A stretch of DNA of 27,323 nucleotides from Paracoccaceae bacterium (GTDB lineage Bacteria > Pseudomonadota > Alphaproteobacteria > Rhodobacterales > Rhodobacteraceae), in contig JALSRF010000503.1 in the NCBI GenBank assembly GCA_026984895.1, forward strand, positions 1 through 27,323, read 5' to 3'. The translations under genes and the position numbers were made by a program. Position 1 is the stretch's first letter. The number at the start of each line of letters is the position of its first letter. The notes beneath the pieces were generated by a model. The model ran no database searches, was not told the origin of the DNA, and was given only the letters and a program-made list of their open reading frames with translations. This document shows, one piece after another, positions 9,842 through 18,377 of this stretch.

Positions 9842-10765
9842 TCACGGCAGGCGCGGCGCATCGGGCGCGCAGCTTTTCGCCGGAATGTCCAGGCCCTCGG
9901 GCACATCGGTGCCGATGCAGATCAGTTCGCGTGCGCCCATCTTGCGGGCAAACCATGCCAGCAGCGTATCGGCATCCGCGGCCGGACGTTCCGGGCTGTC
10001 GAGCACCAGGCGCGCCGGCGCCCAGACCGAAATCTGCCCGTTCAGGAGCCCCCAGTCCAGTTCGGTCCGACTGTCCACCACCACGCAGCGCTGGTCGCGC
10101 CCGGCCAGCACCCAGGCATTCTGTTCGATGGCCAGCAGGTCGATCCTGCGCTGCACGGCCGGGATCGCAGAGCGCACAGGCAGGCTGTCAGGCGCACCGA
10201 CACACAAGATGACGGGTGTTCGGGCCTCTGCCAGTTCGTCGATCCAACGCGCCAGCCACCGGGACGCGATCGCCGCGTTGGACAGGAAGACAAGAACCGG
10301 GCGCGGCGCCGCCTGGGGCTGCGACGGCGCAAGCCGTTCGGCGCGCGACGCGCTGCGAACGATTTCGACCCCAAGCGCGCCGGGCCCGCGGTCCAGCTTC
10401 TGGATGCGCACGAAGACGCGCTCGGCCTGCGGTTCGTTCAGCAGACGCGCGGCAATACGCTCGGCCAGGGTTTCCAGCAGGTTCAGCCTTTCGGACGCAA
10501 GTTCGGCGGCGATGACCCGGGAAATGGTATCGTAGGAGAGCACCCGATCGACATCGTCCAGCAGCGGCTCTGCCGGCGGCTTGACCTCGACCACGACATC
10601 GAAGCTGAGGCGTTGCGTGGTCCCGCGCTCGATCTGGAAGGCGCCGATTTCGACCTCGACAACGTGATCACGCAGCGAAATCCGGTCCAGCGGATTGTCC
10701 CCGGCGCTGGCGCGGGCCCGGGCGCTGAGGCTGTCGAAGGCCAGGAGGGCGGCGTCGGTGCTCAT
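9842..10765 (-). CDS. folB: Dihydroneopterin aldolase fused to an about 150-aa C-terminal domain, 307 aa
   Basis: FolB motifs IGAFQIER, LSYD, LNLLETLAERIA, VRIQKL in the first ~140 aa. Lies directly upstream of folP. Confidence 0.85.
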   Translation of the reverse strand: MSTDAALLAFDSLSARARASAGDNPLDRISLRDHVVEVEIGAFQIERGTTQRLSFDVVVEVKPPAEPLLDDVDRVLSYDTISRVIAAELASERLNLLETLAERIAARLLNEPQAERVFVRIQKLDRGPGALGVEIVRSASRAERLAPSQPQAAPRPVLVFLSNAAIASRWLARWIDELAEARTPVILCVGAPDSLPVRSAIPAVQRRIDLLAIEQNAWVLAGRDQRCVVVDSRTELDWGLLNGQISVWAPARLVLDSPERPAADADTLLAWFARKMGARELICIGTDVPEGLDIPAKSCAPDAPRLP

Positions 10766-10893
10766 GAACGGGAATCCGGTTGTGGACTGACTGGCCGATC
10801 CATAGCGCAAACGCCCCCGGTTTTCCATGGCGCAGGCGTCGGCATGCGTGGTTCCCGCGGTCTTTTCGCGCCCGGCGAATGCAGGCGGCCGCG

Positions 10894-11589
10894 TCAGCGC
10901 AACTGGGCAGTTTCCAGAGGCAGGCGGTAGAAGAAATGCGCCCCGATGGCCGCGGTGCGTGAAAACTTGCGCGCCCAGCGCGGACGCACCGAACGGGCGT
11001 GATAGTAGGTGGCACCGCCGGTCAGGTCGCGTTTCTTGCCGTCAAGCACGATGCGCGCCACCTTGCCGACCTCTTCCCAGGCCACGCGATCGGTAATGGT
11101 TTCCTTGCGCCCGTCGCAACGATAGGTGAACTGGCATTGGAAACGCCGCCCCGTGCCCTGGTTGATCACCGCGCATACGGTGTCGGGAAACTTCGGGCTG
11201 TCGACGCGATTCAGAACCACCTCGGCCACCGCAAACTGGCCCTTGACGGATTCTCCGCGGGCCTCGAAATACAGCGCTTCGCTGAGGCAGCGCCAGCTTT
11301 TCCCCCCCTTGGCCACGGGCAGGCTGCCCAGATATTCCCGGCTGTAGGAGAACCGCGGCGCGCGCCGGGCAAAAAGCCCGCCGGTGGGGCGCGACTGCAG
11401 CCGCTTCACCCGCGCCGGGCTGACGGCCTCCATGGCCTGGTGTTCATTGCCGAACAAGGCCCCGAGTTCGGCATCCAGGATGGCGGCAGGCGCGTTGGAC
11501 TGGCTGAGCGACACGTCCGCCCGTGCGCCGGCAGCGCTCGCCAGAAGCGCCACGACCAGCAACAGCCTCGCAAGACGCGGGTGCAACAT
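10894..11589 (-). CDS. SleB/CwlJ-family cell wall hydrolase (lytic transglycosylase-like) with signal peptide, 231 aa
   Basis: Signal peptide LLLVVALLASAAGARA, CLSEALYFEARGE (catalytic Glu), QFAVAEVVLNRV, CQF, GATYYHA. Confidence 0.92.
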   Translation of the reverse strand: MLHPRLARLLLVVALLASAAGARADVSLSQSNAPAAILDAELGALFGNEHQAMEAVSPARVKRLQSRPTGGLFARRAPRFSYSREYLGSLPVAKGGKSWRCLSEALYFEARGESVKGQFAVAEVVLNRVDSPKFPDTVCAVINQGTGRRFQCQFTYRCDGRKETITDRVAWEEVGKVARIVLDGKKRDLTGGATYYHARSVRPRWARKFSRTAAIGAHFFYRLPLETAQLR

Positions 11590-11806
11590 TCCCCCTCCAG
11601 GTTTCCAGATGCCGGCTTCGGGCCGGCGGCAGACTCCAGCCCAATTAGGTCAAAACCTCGCGCACGTCGAGTCACGCCGCCGTGCGCACGGCCCCCACGT
11701 TGCAGGCCGACAACATCCGTTTCACCGAAAATTCCGCGAAAATTCGCCGATTCCCGATGATTTTCAACGAAATTTTCGCGGTCCTGGTCCTGCCCTCTGT
11801 TTCCGG

Positions 11807-14353
11807 TCACGAAACGCTATTTTTCAGCGTCCAGTGGGCCGCCGCCAGCCGTGCGACGGGGACCCGGTAGGGGGAACACGACACATAGTCGAAGCCCAGC
11901 GCCCGACAAAAGGCGATGGATTCGGGATTGCCGCCGTGTTCGCCGCACATGGCAAGCGTGATGTCGGGGCGGGTCGCGCGGGCGCGCTCGGCGCCGAGTT
12001 CCATCAATTCCCCGACCCCTTCGGCATCGAGAATGTGAAACGGGTCCTCGGGATAGACCCCTTGCGCCACGTAGTCCCCCATGAAGCGGCCGGCATCGTC
12101 GCGCGACAGCCCGTAGGTCATCTGGGTCAGGTCGTTGGTGCCGAAAGACAGGAAGGCGGCATGCTGGGCAATGTCGTTGGCGCGCAGCGCGGCGCGCGGG
12201 GTTTCGGCCATGACGCCAAGCCGGTAGTCGAATGCCTCTGCGCGTTCGTTGCGCACCGCCGCGGCAACCGCATCCACGCGCGACTTCACGATTTCCACCT
12301 CCTTGCGCGCCGAAACCAGCGGGATCATGATCTCGGGCACGACCGGGGCGCCCTCGCGGCTGGCCTCGATGGTGGCCTCGAATATGGCACGCGCCTGCAT
12401 GTCGTAGATTTCCGGCACGGTAATGCCAAGCCGGACGCCGCGCATCCCCAGCATGGGGTTGAATTCGCGCAACGCCTCGATGCGGCGCATGACCCGCGAA
12501 AGCGGCATCGCCAGCGCCTCGGCCAGTTCGCGCATGCCCGAACGTCCGGTGGGCAGGAACTCGTGCAGCGGCGGGTCAAACAGGCGGATGCACACCGGCT
12601 GGCCCTGCATGATCTCGAACAGTTCGACGAAATCGTTGCGCTGCATCGGCAGCAGCCGTTCGAGCGCGGCGGCGCGGTCGTCCGGGTCGTCGGTGAAGAT
12701 CATCTCGCGCATCACGGTCAGCCGGTCGTGTTCGAAGAACATGTGCTCGGTGCGACACAGCCCGATGCCCTGGGCATCGAAACGACGCGCCACCTGCGCA
12801 TCCGCCGGCGTGTCGGCGTTGGCGCGGATTTCCATGTCGCTTGCCGCCTCGGCCCAGCCCATCAGCACCTGGAAGGCTTCGCCCAGCCCCGGCGCCAGCA
12901 TCGCCGCCTGCCCGCACAGCGCTTCTCCGGCGGTGCCGTCGAGGGTGATCACATCGCCCTCCCGGAACAGGCGCCCGTCGGGGGCGCGCATCGTCTTTTC
13001 CTTCGCGTTCAGCTGCATGTCGCCGGCCCCGACGACACAGGGCAGCCCGAGGCCGCGCGCGATCACTGCCGCATGGCTGGTCACGCCGCCGCGCTCGGTC
13101 AGCACCCCGGCGGCCGCATGCATGCCGCGCACATCCTCGGGGCGGGTTTCGCGGCGCACGAGGATGCAGGGCTCGGCCCGCGCGGCGCTGGCCTGGGCGG
13201 CGGCCGAGGAAAACACGATGCGCCCGACCGCCGCCCCCGGGCTGGCGGGAATCCCGGTCACGAAGATGTCGCGCGGGTCAGCGGGATCCACCTGCGGGTG
13301 CAACAGTTCGCTCAGGGAGCGCGGCTCGATGCGCTGCACGGCCTCGTTTTCGGTAATGATCCCGTCGTTGGCCAGCGCGACGGCGATTTCCAGCGCCGCA
13401 CGCGGCGTCCGGTTCACGCGCACCGCATCCAGCACGTGCAGCGTGCCGTTTTCCACGGTGAATTCGATCTGCATTTCCTCGCGCAGGCGGGCGCGGCAGA
13501 TTTCGCCGTAGGAGACCAGCCGCTGGAAAAGCTCGGGGCATTTCACCTCCAGCGAGGCGCCGCGCTCGTCCCGGGTGAGAAAGAGCGCGCCCGTTGTCGC
13601 GCGCAGCGCATCGCGCCCCTGGCTCTGCCCCAGATAACGCCCGGTCACCTGTGCCTTGCCGGTGGTCGGGTCGACGAACTGGATCACCCCGGCACCGCTT
13701 TCCCCGGGGCCAACCCCAAGCACCATCTGCTGCACCACCAGCCCGAGCCCCGCTTCGGCCGGTGCGCCGCGGGCCTGGCGCAGGAGCCGCGCGCTCGTGC
13801 CTTCCCAGGCCCGGGCCATCGAGCGCAGCACCTCGGCAAGCTGCTCCTCCGGGTCCTGGGGGAAATATTCCTCGGTCTGCGCCTCGTAGGCCTCCAGCGC
13901 CGCGCGCAGCGCATCGCCCCCCAGCCCCTGGTCGATTTCGAACATTTCCGGATCGAGGCGCGCCACGTTGATGGCGAAGGATTGCACGAACCGAAGATAA
14001 AGCGCATTGGCCGCCTCTTCGCCAAGGCTGTCGACCAGCTCGCCGTGGCGGGCATCGTTCATGCCGATGTTCAGGATCGCCCCCGGCCCGCCCCAGTCGG
14101 GGTCTTCGCTGGACGGGCGCACCGAAACCAGCGGTCGGTCGCCGAACACCGACAGCAGGGCCCGCAGATCCGGCAACTCGCCCGCGGCAATCCGGTGCAC
14201 GGTGTCAAAGGACAGGGCCACGGTTTCGGGAACCGGCAGGTCAAGCCGGATCAACCGCTGCAGGCACTTTGCCCGCCCGCCGTGGGTTTCGGCTGAGATC
14301 GGCGCCACGCGTCGAACACGGGTGAACCCACTTAATGCCATTGCTTTCTGCAT
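11807..14353 (-). CDS. ppdK: Pyruvate phosphate dikinase-like PEP-utilising protein with divergent nucleotide-binding domain, 848 aa
   Basis: GGVTSHAAV (phospho-His), GIGLCRTEHMFF, SFGTNDLTQ, CGEHGG, VSCSPYRVPVARLAAA. It follows glyS, as ppdK commonly does in alphaproteobacteria. N-terminal motifs are altered (see findings). Confidence 0.85.
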   Translation of the reverse strand: MQKAMALSGFTRVRRVAPISAETHGGRAKCLQRLIRLDLPVPETVALSFDTVHRIAAGELPDLRALLSVFGDRPLVSVRPSSEDPDWGGPGAILNIGMNDARHGELVDSLGEEAANALYLRFVQSFAINVARLDPEMFEIDQGLGGDALRAALEAYEAQTEEYFPQDPEEQLAEVLRSMARAWEGTSARLLRQARGAPAEAGLGLVVQQMVLGVGPGESGAGVIQFVDPTTGKAQVTGRYLGQSQGRDALRATTGALFLTRDERGASLEVKCPELFQRLVSYGEICRARLREEMQIEFTVENGTLHVLDAVRVNRTPRAALEIAVALANDGIITENEAVQRIEPRSLSELLHPQVDPADPRDIFVTGIPASPGAAVGRIVFSSAAAQASAARAEPCILVRRETRPEDVRGMHAAAGVLTERGGVTSHAAVIARGLGLPCVVGAGDMQLNAKEKTMRAPDGRLFREGDVITLDGTAGEALCGQAAMLAPGLGEAFQVLMGWAEAASDMEIRANADTPADAQVARRFDAQGIGLCRTEHMFFEHDRLTVMREMIFTDDPDDRAAALERLLPMQRNDFVELFEIMQGQPVCIRLFDPPLHEFLPTGRSGMRELAEALAMPLSRVMRRIEALREFNPMLGMRGVRLGITVPEIYDMQARAIFEATIEASREGAPVVPEIMIPLVSARKEVEIVKSRVDAVAAAVRNERAEAFDYRLGVMAETPRAALRANDIAQHAAFLSFGTNDLTQMTYGLSRDDAGRFMGDYVAQGVYPEDPFHILDAEGVGELMELGAERARATRPDITLAMCGEHGGNPESIAFCRALGFDYVSCSPYRVPVARLAAAHWTLKNSVS

Positions 14354-14494: not shown

Positions 14495-16663
14495 TCAGCC
14501 CTCGATTCGGCGCAGATCGGCCACCCCGAGGCACAGGTCGCGGATCGAAGACAGCATGTTCAGCCGGTTGCGGCGGATCACATCGTTTTCGTCATTCACC
14601 TGCACCGCTTCGAAAAACCCGTCGATGGCCACGCGCAGGGAGGCCAGCGAAGCCATGGCCGACGCGAAATCTTCGGCGTCGATCGCCGAAGAGATCGCCC
14701 CTCCCTCCTGCGAAAGCGCGCGAAACAGCGCCTTTTCCTGCGGCGCACGCAGGAATTTTTCTTCCGCGCCGTAGGAATATTCCACCCCGTCGCGCGCCTC
14801 GGCCTGTTCCAGGATGTTGTTGGCGCGCCGGAACCCCTGCAACAGGTTCGCCCCGTCCTCGGTTTCCAGGAAATCCGACAGCGCGCGCGCGCGGCGCACA
14901 AGCAGGCTCAGGTCATCGTTGCCGGGCATGGACAGACAGGCGTCGATCACATCGTGGCGAATGCCCCGGTCGCGCAGATGCACCTTCAGCCGGTCATGGA
15001 AGAATGCCAGCAGATCGTCGCCGGGGTCCTGCCGGGGCACGGCCTTTCCGTCGGGCTTTTCGCCCGTATCCGCCTTGCAGGCGTCGGTTTCGCCAGCCCG
15101 CTTGCCGGCCGCCGCCTTGCCGGCCGCCTGTTCGTCCAGCCCGTTCAGCGCCGCCCGGAACGCCTCCAGCAGCGGCAGGCGCAGATCGTTGTCCAGCACC
15201 AGCCGGATCACCCCGAGAGCGGCCCGCCGCAGCGCGAAGGGATCCTTGCTGCCGGTGGGTTTCTCGCCGATGGCCCAGAACCCGGCGAGCATGTCGATCT
15301 TGTCCGCCAGCCCCACCGCCACCGAGACCGGCGCCCGCGGCACCGCATCCGACGGCCCAAGCGGCGCATAGTGCTCTTCGCAGGCGGCAGCCACCTCGGC
15401 CCGAAGGCCCGCGGCCGTGGCGTAGCAGCGCCCCATGGTGCCCTGAAGTTCGGGGAATTCGTAGACCATTTCCGAGGCAAGATCGGCCTTGGCAACGCGC
15501 GCCGCTTCGCGCGCCAGCGCCGCATCGGCCCCGGTCGCCGGCGCCAGTTCGCCCGCCAGCCGTTCCAGCCGCGCAACGCGCTCCTTCTGGCTGCCGAGCC
15601 GGTTGTGGAAGGTCACATGGGCCAGCGCGTCCAGCCAGCTGGCCATGCCCGCCCGGGCCACGCGCAGATCGTTTTCCCAGAAGAACCGGGCATCGGCCAG
15701 CCGGGCGGCCAGAACCTTGCGGTTGCCGGCAAGGATGGCGGCGCCGTCATCGGCGGTTTCGCGGTTGGCAACGGTAACGAAACGCACGATCTGCCCGGAT
15801 TTCGGATCCTTCACGGAAAAGAACTTCTGGTGTTCGCGCATCGAGGTCTGCAGCACCTCCGGGGGCAGGCCCAGAAAATCGCTCTCGATCTCGCCCATCA
15901 GCACCACCGGCCATTCCACAAGCCCGGCGACCTCGGCCAGAAGCGCGGCATCCTCCACCAGTTCCAGCCCCTGGGCAAAGGCGGCGGTGGTGGCGTCGTG
16001 GCGAATGGCCTCTGCCCGCTCGGCCGCATCGAGGCGCACGAAGGCGCGCTTCAGCCGGGTGGCGTAGTCCTGAAAACCGGTCACCGAAAAGCGTCCCGGC
16101 GCCATGAACCGGTGCCCGGCGGTGCTGTCTCCGGCCTTGATGCCGTCGATGTCCAGCGCCACCACCCGCGCGCCGGCCTCATCCGACAGCAGGCACAGGA
16201 TCGAATGCAGCGGGCGGACCCATTTCAGCGTCCCGCCCCCCCAGCGCATGGACCTGGGCCAGGGGAAGTTGCGCACCGTGCACTCCAGCACCTCGGCGAC
16301 GATTTCGCCAGCCGGGCGGCCGGCATGCTCGATCACCGCGAACAGCACGTCGCCCTTTGCGGTGGCGCGGGTTTCAAGCTGCGCGCGGCGCATCCCGGTT
16401 GCGCGCAGGAACCCTTCGATCGCCTTTTGCGGCGCGTCGGCCCGCGGGCCCCGGCGCTCTTCGCGGCGCAGCGGGCTCTTGCCCGGCAGCCCCTCGACAT
16501 GCAGCGCCAGCCGGCGCGGCGTGACGAAAGCCCGCGCGCCGGAGCAGCGCAGCCCCGCCTCTGCCAGCCCGTCTGTCACCAGCCGCTTGAGATCGGCGCC
16601 GGCACGCGCCTGCATGCGCGCCGGAATTTCCTCGGAAAACAGTTCGATCAGAAGATCGGCCAT
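14495..16663 (-). CDS. glyS: Glycine-tRNA ligase beta subunit, 722 aa
   Basis: DLLIELFSEEIPARMQ, TPRRL, FPWPRSMRW, WVRPLHSI, EFPELQG, GSKDPFALRR, RRNRLNML. TGATG overlap with the upstream small ORF. Confidence 0.98.
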   Translation of the reverse strand: MADLLIELFSEEIPARMQARAGADLKRLVTDGLAEAGLRCSGARAFVTPRRLALHVEGLPGKSPLRREERRGPRADAPQKAIEGFLRATGMRRAQLETRATAKGDVLFAVIEHAGRPAGEIVAEVLECTVRNFPWPRSMRWGGGTLKWVRPLHSILCLLSDEAGARVVALDIDGIKAGDSTAGHRFMAPGRFSVTGFQDYATRLKRAFVRLDAAERAEAIRHDATTAAFAQGLELVEDAALLAEVAGLVEWPVVLMGEIESDFLGLPPEVLQTSMREHQKFFSVKDPKSGQIVRFVTVANRETADDGAAILAGNRKVLAARLADARFFWENDLRVARAGMASWLDALAHVTFHNRLGSQKERVARLERLAGELAPATGADAALAREAARVAKADLASEMVYEFPELQGTMGRCYATAAGLRAEVAAACEEHYAPLGPSDAVPRAPVSVAVGLADKIDMLAGFWAIGEKPTGSKDPFALRRAALGVIRLVLDNDLRLPLLEAFRAALNGLDEQAAGKAAAGKRAGETDACKADTGEKPDGKAVPRQDPGDDLLAFFHDRLKVHLRDRGIRHDVIDACLSMPGNDDLSLLVRRARALSDFLETEDGANLLQGFRRANNILEQAEARDGVEYSYGAEEKFLRAPQEKALFRALSQEGGAISSAIDAEDFASAMASLASLRVAIDGFFEAVQVNDENDVIRRNRLNMLSSIRDLCLGVADLRRIEG

Positions 16664-17187
16664 CACTTCTTCCTTTCGGGCGGAGGCGGGCAGCCTTCGG
16701 GGGCGGGCTGGCCGTCATAGACCACCTCGCCGCAATGGTTCAACTGGTGCCAGGCATAGGCGCGTCCGTCGTCGTAGACCGCGATCACCTGATCGATGCC
16801 GTAGGTCACGTTGGCCTCGCCGAGAAAGGCCAGCGCCTTGCCGCTTTCCAGGTCGGCGCCGATCCGGGCGGCGTCGAAACAGTCGAACCAGCCCGGCCCG
16901 ATCAGCGGCCGGGCGTTTTCGTAGGGCGTGTAGGTTTCGGTCATCATCGCAAGGCTCTGCGGAGTCCTGAAACAGGCCCGAAAGCGCAGCGGCGAACTGT
17001 TGGCGTCGATGCCCCGGAAATCCTCGGTCAGGATCGGCTCGGCCCGGTCCTGGCCCAGCGGGGTCATGCGCATCACGGTATCGGCCGGCAGATCGAAGAA
17101 ATAGGCGTAGACCTGCAGATAGTAGATGGCCCCGCCGGCAAGCAGCGCGGAACCGACGATGATCGACACGAGAACCTTCCCCATCAT
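16663..17187 (-). CDS. Conserved hypothetical membrane-anchored protein (resembles the DUF6446 family), 174 aa
   Basis: 3' part of ORF 16663..17487 from MMGKVLV. One N-terminal TM segment, four Cys, ATGA overlap with glyQ and TGATG overlap with glyS. The DUF label is from memory. Confidence 0.75.
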
Positions 17188-18182
17188 GCGCCCTGCCCGT
17201 CGCCGGCACGGTTGCCGGAGGGCGCCGGGCCGGAGGGCGCGGGGCCGGCATCCGGTTCCTCGGACAGCGCGGTTTCGGATTGCAGCCAGGCGCCCGCACA
17301 GGCCCGTGCCAGCGCGCGCACCCGCCCGATATAGGCCTGGCGCTCGGTCACCGAGATCACCCCGCGCGCATCCAGCAGGTTGAACAGGTGGCTGGCCTTG
17401 ATGCACTGGTCGTAGGCCGGCAGCGCCATGACGATGCGCCGGCCGGTTTTCGGATCCTCTTCGGGGGCGGCCAGGATGCGCTGACACTCGGCCTCGGCAT
17501 CCTCGAAATGGCGCAGCAGCATCGCCGTGTCCGCCACATCGAAGTTCCAGCGCGAATACTGTTCTTCCGCCTGGCGGAAGACGTCGCCGTATTTCAGCGG
17601 GATCGGCGCATCGGGGTCGTTGAACGGCATCGCCATCACATGGTCCACCCCCAGCACATACATCGCCAGCCGTTCCAGCCCGTAGGTCAGCTCGCCCGAA
17701 ACCGGGTGGCAGTCATGGCCGCCGACCTGCTGGAAATAGGTGAACTGGCTGACTTCCATGCCGTCGCACCAGACCTCCCAGCCCAGGCCCCAGGCGCCCA
17801 GGGTCGGGCTTTCCCAGTCGTCCTCGACAAAACGGATGTCGTGCATCTCCATGTCGATGCCGATCGCCTGGAGGCTGCCCAGATACAGTGCCTGAAAATC
17901 CGGCGGGCTTGGCTTCAGGATCACCTGATACTGGTAATAGTGCTGCAGGCGGTTCGGATTTTCGCCATAGCGCCCGTCGGTGGGCCGGCGCGAGGGCTGG
18001 ACGAAGGCGGCCGCCCAGGGGCGCGGTCCCAGCGCGCGCAGCGTCGTCGCCGGATGAAACGTGCCCGCGCCCACCTCCATGTCATAGGGCTGCAGCACGG
18101 CACAGCCCTGCCCGGCCCAATAGGCCTGCAGCCGCAGGATGACCTCCTGGAACGAACGCGGTCTGGCGGGTCTGGCGGCCAT
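17184..18182 (-). CDS. glyQ: Glycine-tRNA ligase alpha subunit, 332 aa
   Basis: [64 protein letters not shown]. Confidence 0.99.
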
Positions 18183-18377
18183 CGTGATCCCTTTGCAGCG
18201 ATACCTTCGGAAACTCCGCGCCCTCAATAGGCAGCGTTGCCGGCAGGGTCAATTGCGGCCGTGCCGATCGCGCGCCCGGTTGCCCCGGTTGCAACGGAAA
18301 CTGGCCCCGTGCATACCGCGCGACGGGCCGCTATGGTCCGGCACGAGAATCAGGGAACCGGGAGCGGATGACAGTTC

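Follow-up and report, generated by a model that had tools for sequence, protein, structure and literature searches.

Contig JALSRF010000503.1 (27,323 nucleotides; the window is this whole stretch, on which positions are numbered) belongs to a metagenome-assembled genome (MAG) of a Paracoccaceae bacterium, GCA_026984895.1, and carries a gene for an 848-amino-acid homologue of pyruvate, phosphate dikinase (PPDK). Its phospho-His and phosphoenolpyruvate (PEP) sites are those of PPDK, and most of the residues that bind ATP and inorganic phosphate (Pi) in the N-terminal domain have been replaced by others that are themselves conserved. From residue conservation and a structural model we arrive at a reading that we regard as evenly poised between right and wrong: PEP-to-His chemistry would be retained, and the N-terminal site, re-tooled, would now serve a ligand or acceptor that is non-canonical and probably bears phosphate. 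An earlier note on this DNA had described a PPDK homologue with intact PEP and phospho-His domains and an eroded ATP/Pi domain, possibly a standalone PEP-driven phosphotransferase, and had named an Enzyme-I-like phosphodonor, a PEP/pyruvate sensor and a kinase for a different acceptor as roles that it could have. Our analysis upholds the intact PEP and His sites, the departure from the canonical ATP/Pi residue set and the view that the gene is no pseudogene; “eroded” and “standalone” have to be given up, and “Enzyme-I-like” is not supported.

Conservation Differs Between the Three Domains

Pfam recognizes the swivel phospho-His domain (PF00391, residues 394-476) and the PEP/pyruvate domain (PF02896, residues 495-840). 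PF01326 (PPDK_N; cut-off 27 bits) did not match the whole protein, nor the N-domain alone at E<=10; canonical N-domains match this profile at 1.5e-43. With TIGR01828, the PPDK equivalog profile, the protein scored 843.0 bits, just below the cut-off of 843.45, and the alignment started only at residue 75. Canonical alphaproteobacterial PPDKs score 1320-1427 bits with the same profile. The closest solved relative is the PPDK of Clostridium symbiosum (E ~1e-194, residues 72-845).

The domains were compared in a MAFFT alignment of 68 sequences, including 30 canonical alphaproteobacterial PPDKs (Table 1). Relatives were taken from 61 genomes drawn evenly from the same GTDB family (match names Paracoccaceae, Rhodobacteraceae and Roseobacteraceae), and “crown” denotes the approximately 50 of these whose N-domain is 56-80% identical to that of the query. 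The N-domain is the most conserved domain of canonical PPDKs. Scoring conservation per domain, which the earlier note had proposed, bears out the difference that it drew between the domains; on these alignments, the asymmetry is far beyond chance.

Table 1. Sequence identity and retention of canonical-invariant columns in each domain.
Comparison	N-domain	Linker/His	PEP domain
Query to 30 canonical PPDKs, identity	29%	50%	56%
Canonical PPDKs among themselves, identity	71%	68%	68%
Crown members among themselves, identity	63.5%	67%	76%
Canonical-invariant columns kept in crown consensus	43/110 (39%)	45/51 (88%)	111/119 (93%)

The match of the central His domain and the C-terminal barrel to PPDK extends to the catalytic residues. 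H427, R534, R590, E717, N740, D741 and C803 (His455, R561, R617, E745, N768, D769 and C831 in PPDK numbering) occur in every clade member (49/49 for each residue), and T425 (Thr453) occurs in 45/49. Judged by these residues, the swivel phospho-His domain and the PEP/pyruvate site are canonical.

The Nucleotide/Phosphate Site Is Replaced

The motif changes quoted in the earlier note are all found in the alignment: GGKG reads GGRA, SGA.SMPGMMDT reads PSSEDPDWGGPGA, GTGVAFTR reads GAGVIQFV, QGEDVVAG reads QGRDALRA, QDMEF reads MQIEF and LQTR reads LDAV (13421-13432). The residue numbers that it gave (K22, D321, Q335 and R337) fit the ungapped alignment and the PDB titles 1JDE (K22A) and 2DIK (R337A). 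Residue frequencies over 49 crown proteins are listed in Table 2.

Table 2. Residues of the nucleotide/phosphate site in 49 crown proteins.
C. symbiosum PPDK	Crown residue (query numbering)	Frequency
K22	R27	49/49
R92	R79 (kept)	49/49
G101	G88 (kept)	49/49
M103	P90	49/49
R135	R121 (kept)	46/49
Q240	Q208 (kept)	49/49
E271	R239	49/49
E279	R247	49/49
D321	Q295	47/49
E323	E297 (kept)	49/49
Q335	D309	49/49
R337	V311	42/49
Position 338	R312 (new)	45/49
R341	R315 (kept)	49/49

The SMPGMMDT loop reads DPDWGGPG, and W87, G88, G89 and P90 within it are invariant in the clade. R219 is also lost in the crown, where T or S is found instead. At 36 positions that are invariant in both groups, canonical and crown proteins carry different residues, and the net charge over these positions goes from -3 to +3. 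As judged by alignment, the canonical ATP/Pi set (K22, R92, D321, E323, Q335, R337 and the SMPGMMDT loop) is no longer present, only R92 and E323 being unchanged. In PEP synthases (PpsA) from this family of bacteria, GGK, D-x-E and Q-x-R are intact, and the crown thus departs from a signature that extends over the whole PPDK/PpsA superfamily. For K22, a role at the gamma-phosphate has been proposed (PMC4844700).

A shift of register that would restore the ATP/Pi ligands was considered and rejected, since the alignment is ungapped between E297/F298 and R315, and R312 corresponds to canonical position 338, not 337. By strand alternation, the side chain of R312 should face the opposite side from that of R337.

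The N-Domain Is Constrained

An AlphaFold2 (AF2) model based on a 67-sequence alignment had a mean predicted local distance difference test score (pLDDT) of 90.4 and a predicted template modelling score (pTM) of 0.85. Within the N-domain, 10-residue blocks averaged 75-96, the disordered first block excepted. Foldseek aligned the model over its full length with Flaveria PPDK containing a bound ATP analogue (5jvl_C; TM 0.89/0.88, root-mean-square deviation 3.0 Å), and in an ESM Atlas search the N-domain fell among PPDK_N proteins by features and by structure. The PPDK nucleotide-binding fold is confidently predicted to be kept.

Pairwise ratios of nonsynonymous to synonymous substitution (dN/dS) within the crown ran from 0.06 to 0.32 in the N-domain, from 0.09 to 0.28 in the His domain and from 0.04 to 0.13 in the PEP domain, and positions invariant in at least 48 of 49 sequences made up 33%, 30% and 47% of these domains, respectively. 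The N-domain is under purifying selection. Since the replacement residues are themselves fixed, the site was rebuilt and not left to decay, and the confident fold, the low dN/dS and a share of invariant positions similar to that of the His domain leave no place for an “eroded” domain.

One could suppose that the N-terminal third is decaying and that the gene is becoming a pseudogene, since the N-domain is the most diverged part of the protein and has no Pfam match. This is highly improbable and is effectively refuted by dN/dS values well below 1, the invariant N-domain positions and the confident predicted fold. The reading frame is intact and of full length here, with no frameshift, as the earlier note had stated, and it is intact in nearly all of 60 sampled genomes; relatives of the N-domain are encoded by at least 574 species-representative genomes, among them members of Leisingera, Sulfitobacter, Loktanella, Roseovarius, Rhodovulum, Celeribacter, Thalassobius and Aliiroseovarius.

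A second alternative, which we consider improbable, is that the N-domain is a non-catalytic remnant maintained for folding, regulation or docking, and that only the PEP/pyruvate-His half works, either sensing the PEP:pyruvate ratio or donating phosphate to a partner protein in the manner of Enzyme I. The intact PEP and His domains are in line with it, and so is a comparison with PDB entry 2R82, the R219E/E271R/S262D variant of C. symbiosum PPDK, which in our alignment reads GRYL at the wild-type GEYL. Lim et al. 2007 reportedly designed the three substitutions so that the His and nucleotide domains would repel each other; the natural change of E271 to R matches one of them, and R219 is lost as well. 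In some lineages the N-domain has decayed further, with a deletion in genome G006 and a frameshift in G029. The AF2 model is also nearer to PEP-side conformers (TM 0.82-0.89) than to 1KBL (0.70), but the choice of conformer by AF2 is no evidence of function. If the domain were dispensable, deletions of it should be frequent, yet forms of 847-860 amino acids dominate, and polar and charged pocket residues that are invariant in 49/49 proteins are hard to explain without a ligand. As to a phosphodonor role, Pfam did not find an HPr-binding domain (PF05524), and no conserved partner was found beyond the ancestral glyS neighborhood.

Two charge losses in the His domain, E to Q387 and R to L437, are fixed in the crown. 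They could compensate for the changes of R219 to T/S and E271 to R, a possibility that we offer as a lead only.

The Gene Is the Family's ppdK Orthologue

Of the canonical alphaproteobacterial loci, 25/30 have glyS as a neighbor of the PPDK gene; the same is true of 25/29 loci in the clade and of 8/8 intermediate ones, and glyS lies directly upstream of the gene in the window as well. No second PPDK homologue was found in the MAG (88% complete). The position next to glyS and the lack of another homologue make the gene a positional orthologue of alphaproteobacterial ppdK and not an added paralogue, which disposes of the term “standalone”. A tree of the His and C-terminal domains (His+C) placed all Rhodobacteraceae sequences in one clade and joined the clade under study to L040 of genome G056, a canonical-type Rhodobacteraceae PPDK with a fully canonical N-domain (GGKGANL, SMPGMLDT, GEYL, QGEDVV, QDIEFT and LQTRS). 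The gene is thus a vertically inherited Rhodobacteraceae orthologue of ppdK. That it is an extra paralogue beside a real PPDK was ruled out, as it is the sole homologue in the MAG and a canonical-type PPDK is found in 1/61 family genomes.

A relative of the rebuilt N-domain is present in 60/61 sampled family genomes, seven of which, the canonical-type G056 among them, have forms of lower identity (35-48%). Two genomes, G015 (97% complete) and G017 (95%), yielded no convincing homologue, and the gene is not strictly universal in the family. A crown-type gene with 65% N-domain identity (L099, CAXPTW010000034.1) was found on a contig of a MAG labelled Abyssibacter sp., which we take to be a gammaproteobacterial genus; either the contig is mis-binned or the gene was transferred horizontally. 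Homologues are named “putative PEP-binding protein” or “pyruvate, phosphate dikinase” at NCBI, and our literature searches did not find a paper describing the divergent N-domain form.

Rates of Change and Loss of the Regulator

In the His+C tree, the family forms a ladder that begins with the canonical-type L040 and proceeds through L041, L047, L042/L043, L044 and L046 to the crown. Branch lengths were re-estimated for each partition on the fixed His+C topology, and the ladder comes from this gene tree alone. The ratio of N-domain to His+C rates was 1.24 within canonical PPDKs and approximately 17 (1.43 vs. 0.085 substitutions per site) on the branch that links the nodes of L040 and L041; for the stem as a whole it was 5.75, and among crown members 2.2. 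Such a course is expected when one constraint is lost and a new, somewhat looser one takes its place.

In L047 (G006:C2, a frame of 821 amino acids), the N-domain lacks the QG(E/R)D segment and has a branch of 2.46, compared with 0.51 for His+C, which points to further N-domain degeneration in some lineages. In G029 (C7:1370074-1371064), a frameshift, either a sequencing error or a real inactivation, divides the divergent N-domain between two frames (residues 14-265 and 254-350).

The PPDK regulator PDRP (DUF299, PF03618) was found in 35/43 sampled alphaproteobacterial genomes with canonical PPDK and in 1/17 without it. None of the 50 crown genomes yielded it, nor did this MAG (88% complete). 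Within the family sample, PDRP is limited to the canonical G056 and to G003, G013 and G059, whose forms are basal and partly remodelled. A changed function in the crown would agree with the loss of PDRP there. The earlier note had pointed out that the regulatory Thr is retained. This is so in most of the clade (T425 in 45/49), but it says little when PDRP is not found here or in 50 relatives. Enzyme I keeps the same Thr-Ser-His without PDRP.

The Possibility of a Divergent Dikinase

The data may also be explained by a genuine pyruvate, phosphate dikinase whose site drifted to an unusual functional set, with R in place of K22, swapped D/Q metal ligands and a new loop rich in Gly; its kinetics or its preference among nucleotides might have changed as well. 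We deem this explanation unlikely, though one to be taken seriously. A positional orthologue of ppdK with the full three-domain fold and an N-domain under purifying selection is what it would predict; R92, R135, Q240 and E323 are kept, the K to R change and the D/Q swap are chemically mild, and PDRP persists in three lineages with a non-canonical N-domain.

Mutants of C. symbiosum PPDK at K22, R92, D321, E323 and Q335 were reportedly inactive in the work of Ye et al. 2001 (J Biol Chem), and those at R337, E279, D280 and R135 are said to have been partly active and those at T253 and Q240 nearly wild type. On this list, three of the five essential residues (K22, D321 and Q335) are changed here, one conservatively (K to R) and two by an exchange of acid and amide (D321 to Q and Q335 to D). 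These three losses speak against a working dikinase, as do the changes of R337, E279 and the SMPGMMDT loop; the replaced positions are conserved even between PPDK and PEP synthase, and two acidic residues of the pocket are now Arg. A further point against it is that PDRP was not found in 50/50 crown genomes, and a 17-fold burst limited to one domain is unlike the prediction of a steady function.

A Proposed Function and Its Difficulties

In the reading that we prefer, a burst of change would have remodelled the N-domain, and a new constraint would then have fixed the result. His427 would be autophosphorylated from PEP, or dephosphorylated by pyruvate, and the swivel domain would no longer deliver the phosphoryl group to the standard AMP + pyrophosphate (PPi) or ATP + Pi site. 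The rebuilt pocket is rich in Arg (R27, R79, R121, R239, R247, R312 and R315), has E297 and D309 as possible Mg2+ ligands and would most likely accept a different anionic, phosphate-bearing ligand or acceptor. The enzyme would then be a PEP-linked phosphotransferase or sensor with another second substrate, not a standard dikinase. More specifically, and only tentatively, we suggest that the N-domain may have become a new site for catalysis or ligand binding, at which phosphate from PEP, carried by His427, would be transferred to, or exchanged with, something other than AMP/PPi. The acceptor could be a different nucleotide, a metabolite or a polyphosphate species.

Published 13C flux data agree weakly with a re-tooled site. 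Roseobacter denitrificans grown on [3-13C]pyruvate showed weak flux from pyruvate to PEP and low ppdK expression (PMC2749216), and in D. shibae and P. gallaeciensis on glucose, pyruvate was not converted to PEP “despite the putative gene” (PMC2761930).

Several points weigh against this proposal. The flux studies covered few conditions and bear on the proposal only if their strains carry genes of the crown type. All three domains are kept at full length, as a working dikinase would show. The changes of K22 to R, D321 to Q and Q335 to D are conservative or possibly compensating, and R92, R135, Q240 and E323 are kept; with such mild changes, a Mg-nucleotide site of altered geometry is possible. 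Conservation of the pocket is suggestive of a site only mildly more constrained than the rest of the N-domain: among the pocket equivalents of 11 mutated C. symbiosum residues, 8 are conserved, compared with 46% elsewhere in the domain (90% level), a difference that is not significant (p=0.07). G003, G013 and G059 have an already non-canonical N-domain and still have PDRP, which fits continued PPDK-type regulation at least in these three genomes. The residue roles used here follow in part what Ye et al. 2001 and McGuire et al. 1998 reportedly found. Finally, PEP synthase occurs in 11/50 clade genomes and in 6/43 genomes beside canonical PPDK; its frequency had been considered as a sign of non-redundancy and was dropped, as these counts give no useful signal.

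Consequences for Annotation and Metabolic Models

If re-tooling took place, the reaction implied by the routine “ppdK” annotation in Rhodobacteraceae is probably the wrong one. Few marine heterotrophs are as abundant as the Roseobacter group and its relatives, whose genomes are routinely annotated with ppdK; metabolic models, as well as a proposed mixotrophic CO2-assimilation route (PPDK plus PEP carboxylase), presume a reversible step between pyruvate and PEP. Should the protein have no ATP + Pi dikinase chemistry, such reconstructions would be wrong at a central node, where a conserved enzyme with another second substrate would operate instead. If, more specifically, the N-domain acts on the new acceptor tentatively suggested above, a new PEP-dependent phosphotransferase activity would extend across hundreds of marine roseobacter species. 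The family would also provide a clean natural case in which one domain of a multi-domain machine was re-tooled and the other two were frozen. Stepwise intermediates survive in living lineages, and loss of the regulator can be traced alongside. Since the clade has cultured members (Celeribacter, Rhodovulum, Leisingera, Sulfitobacter and Roseovarius), the question is directly testable.

The Gene and Its Surroundings

The coordinates of the gene, its domains and its upstream neighbors are given in Table 3. The ATG start of the 848-codon open reading frame (ORF) is common to homologues of 847-850 amino acids, and the stop codon is at 11807-11809 (-).

Table 3. Features of the PPDK-homologue locus in the window.
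Feature	Positions	Strand	Basis or remark
Whole gene, 848-aa PPDK homologue	11807..14353	-	ORF, TIGR01828, C. symbiosum alignment, glyS synteny
N-terminal domain, residues 1-335; predicted nucleotide-binding (ATP-grasp) fold, rebuilt site, without PF01326 match	13349..14353	-	
Linkers and swivel phospho-His domain (PF00391); GGVTSHAAV with T425 and H427	12854..13348	-	
H427 codon	13073-13075	-	Alignment to C. symbiosum PPDK
PEP/pyruvate TIM-barrel domain (PF02896)	11810..12853	-	Pfam, residue conservation
R27 codon, position of K22; GGKG reads GGRA	14273..14275	-	R in 49/49 clade members
Residues 84-92, DPDWGGPGA in place of canonical SMPGMMDT phosphate loop	14078..14104	-	
R239 (position of E271; GEYL reads GRYL) through R247 (E279; QGED reads QGRD)	13613..13639	-	
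Q295-I-E297 in place of D321-x-E323	13463..13471	-	
D309-A-V311-R312 in place of Q335-T-R337-x	13418..13429	-	
glyS, glycyl-tRNA synthetase beta subunit, directly upstream	14495..16666	-	Synteny anchor with canonical ppdK loci
DUF6446 gene, upstream	16663-17487	-	Same strand as PPDK homologue
glyQ, upstream	17184-18227	-	Same strand as PPDK homologue

The DUF6446 gene sits between glyQ and glyS, inside the usual glyQS operon. Downstream of the PPDK homologue are genes for a SleB-like cell-wall hydrolase, folB and folP. The folB ORF (9842-10828, -) encodes 328 amino acids, with the FolB domain in residues 50-156 only and no Pfam match in the C-terminal half. Beyond the ancestral glyQ-DUF6446-glyS genes upstream and the SleB-like hydrolase downstream, no clade-specific partner gene was found near the gene. 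A 970-codon open frame antisense to the PPDK homologue (11384-14296, +) is a shadow ORF and not a gene candidate; such frames are common at 67-70% G+C.

The MAG as a whole (2.7 Mb, 510 contigs, 88% complete) contains a PtsP-like Enzyme I on another contig, pyruvate kinase and ATP-dependent PEP carboxykinase. Given the latter two enzymes, glycolytic and gluconeogenic flux can proceed without the PPDK homologue; their presence neither supports nor refutes any of the explanations considered.

Comparison with Known Systems

With PPDK (EC 2.7.9.1, TIGR01828; C. symbiosum 1KBL/1DIK, Flaveria 5JVL and maize 1VBG), the protein shares the order and fold of the three domains, the swivel His/Thr motif, the PEP/pyruvate catalytic residues and the position on the glyS side that is usual in other Alphaproteobacteria. 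It differs in an N-domain of 29% identity with K22, E271, E279, D321, Q335, R337 and the SMPGMMDT loop replaced, in a TIGR01828 score that is ~500-580 bits under those of canonical relatives and just below the cut-off, and in that PDRP was not found in the genome.

PEP synthase (PpsA) belongs to the same superfamily and follows the same three-module logic. The protein scored 142 bits with its profile, TIGR01418, against a cut-off of 739.75, and the query clade lacks the GGK, D-x-E and Q-x-R that PpsA of the same bacterial family keeps. Enzyme I (PtsI/PtsP) has a homologous swivel His and PEP barrel, and PEP-driven autophosphorylation is its only chemistry. Unlike the query, which has a full PPDK-type N-domain and no HPr module, Enzyme I lacks an ATP-grasp domain and binds HPr through a helical subdomain (PF05524); the query scored 121 bits with the Enzyme I profile, TIGR01417, against a cut-off of 341.7.

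The remaining likeness is to VadK (Rv1127c) of Mycobacterium tuberculosis, a regulatory histidine kinase derived from PPDK (PMC13400623). VadK-like proteins with ATP-grasp and His domains only (TIGR01828 ~2-529) were also observed in several alphaproteobacterial genomes, in frames of 540-620 amino acids (G100:C9:7503-9128, G102:C5:575559-577145, G114:C4:46377-47894 and G104:C55:292160-293632) and within a frame of 1059 amino acids (G097:C9:558744-560249). G100 contains the VadK-like form and PDRP, and a full PPDK was not found in it. As a PPDK descendant outside central-carbon catalysis, VadK is a precedent for neofunctionalization of the scaffold. It is also the mirror image of the protein described here: VadK has lost the PEP/pyruvate barrel but retains the ATP-grasp and His domains; in the query, the barrel and the His domain are retained and the ATP-grasp site is altered.

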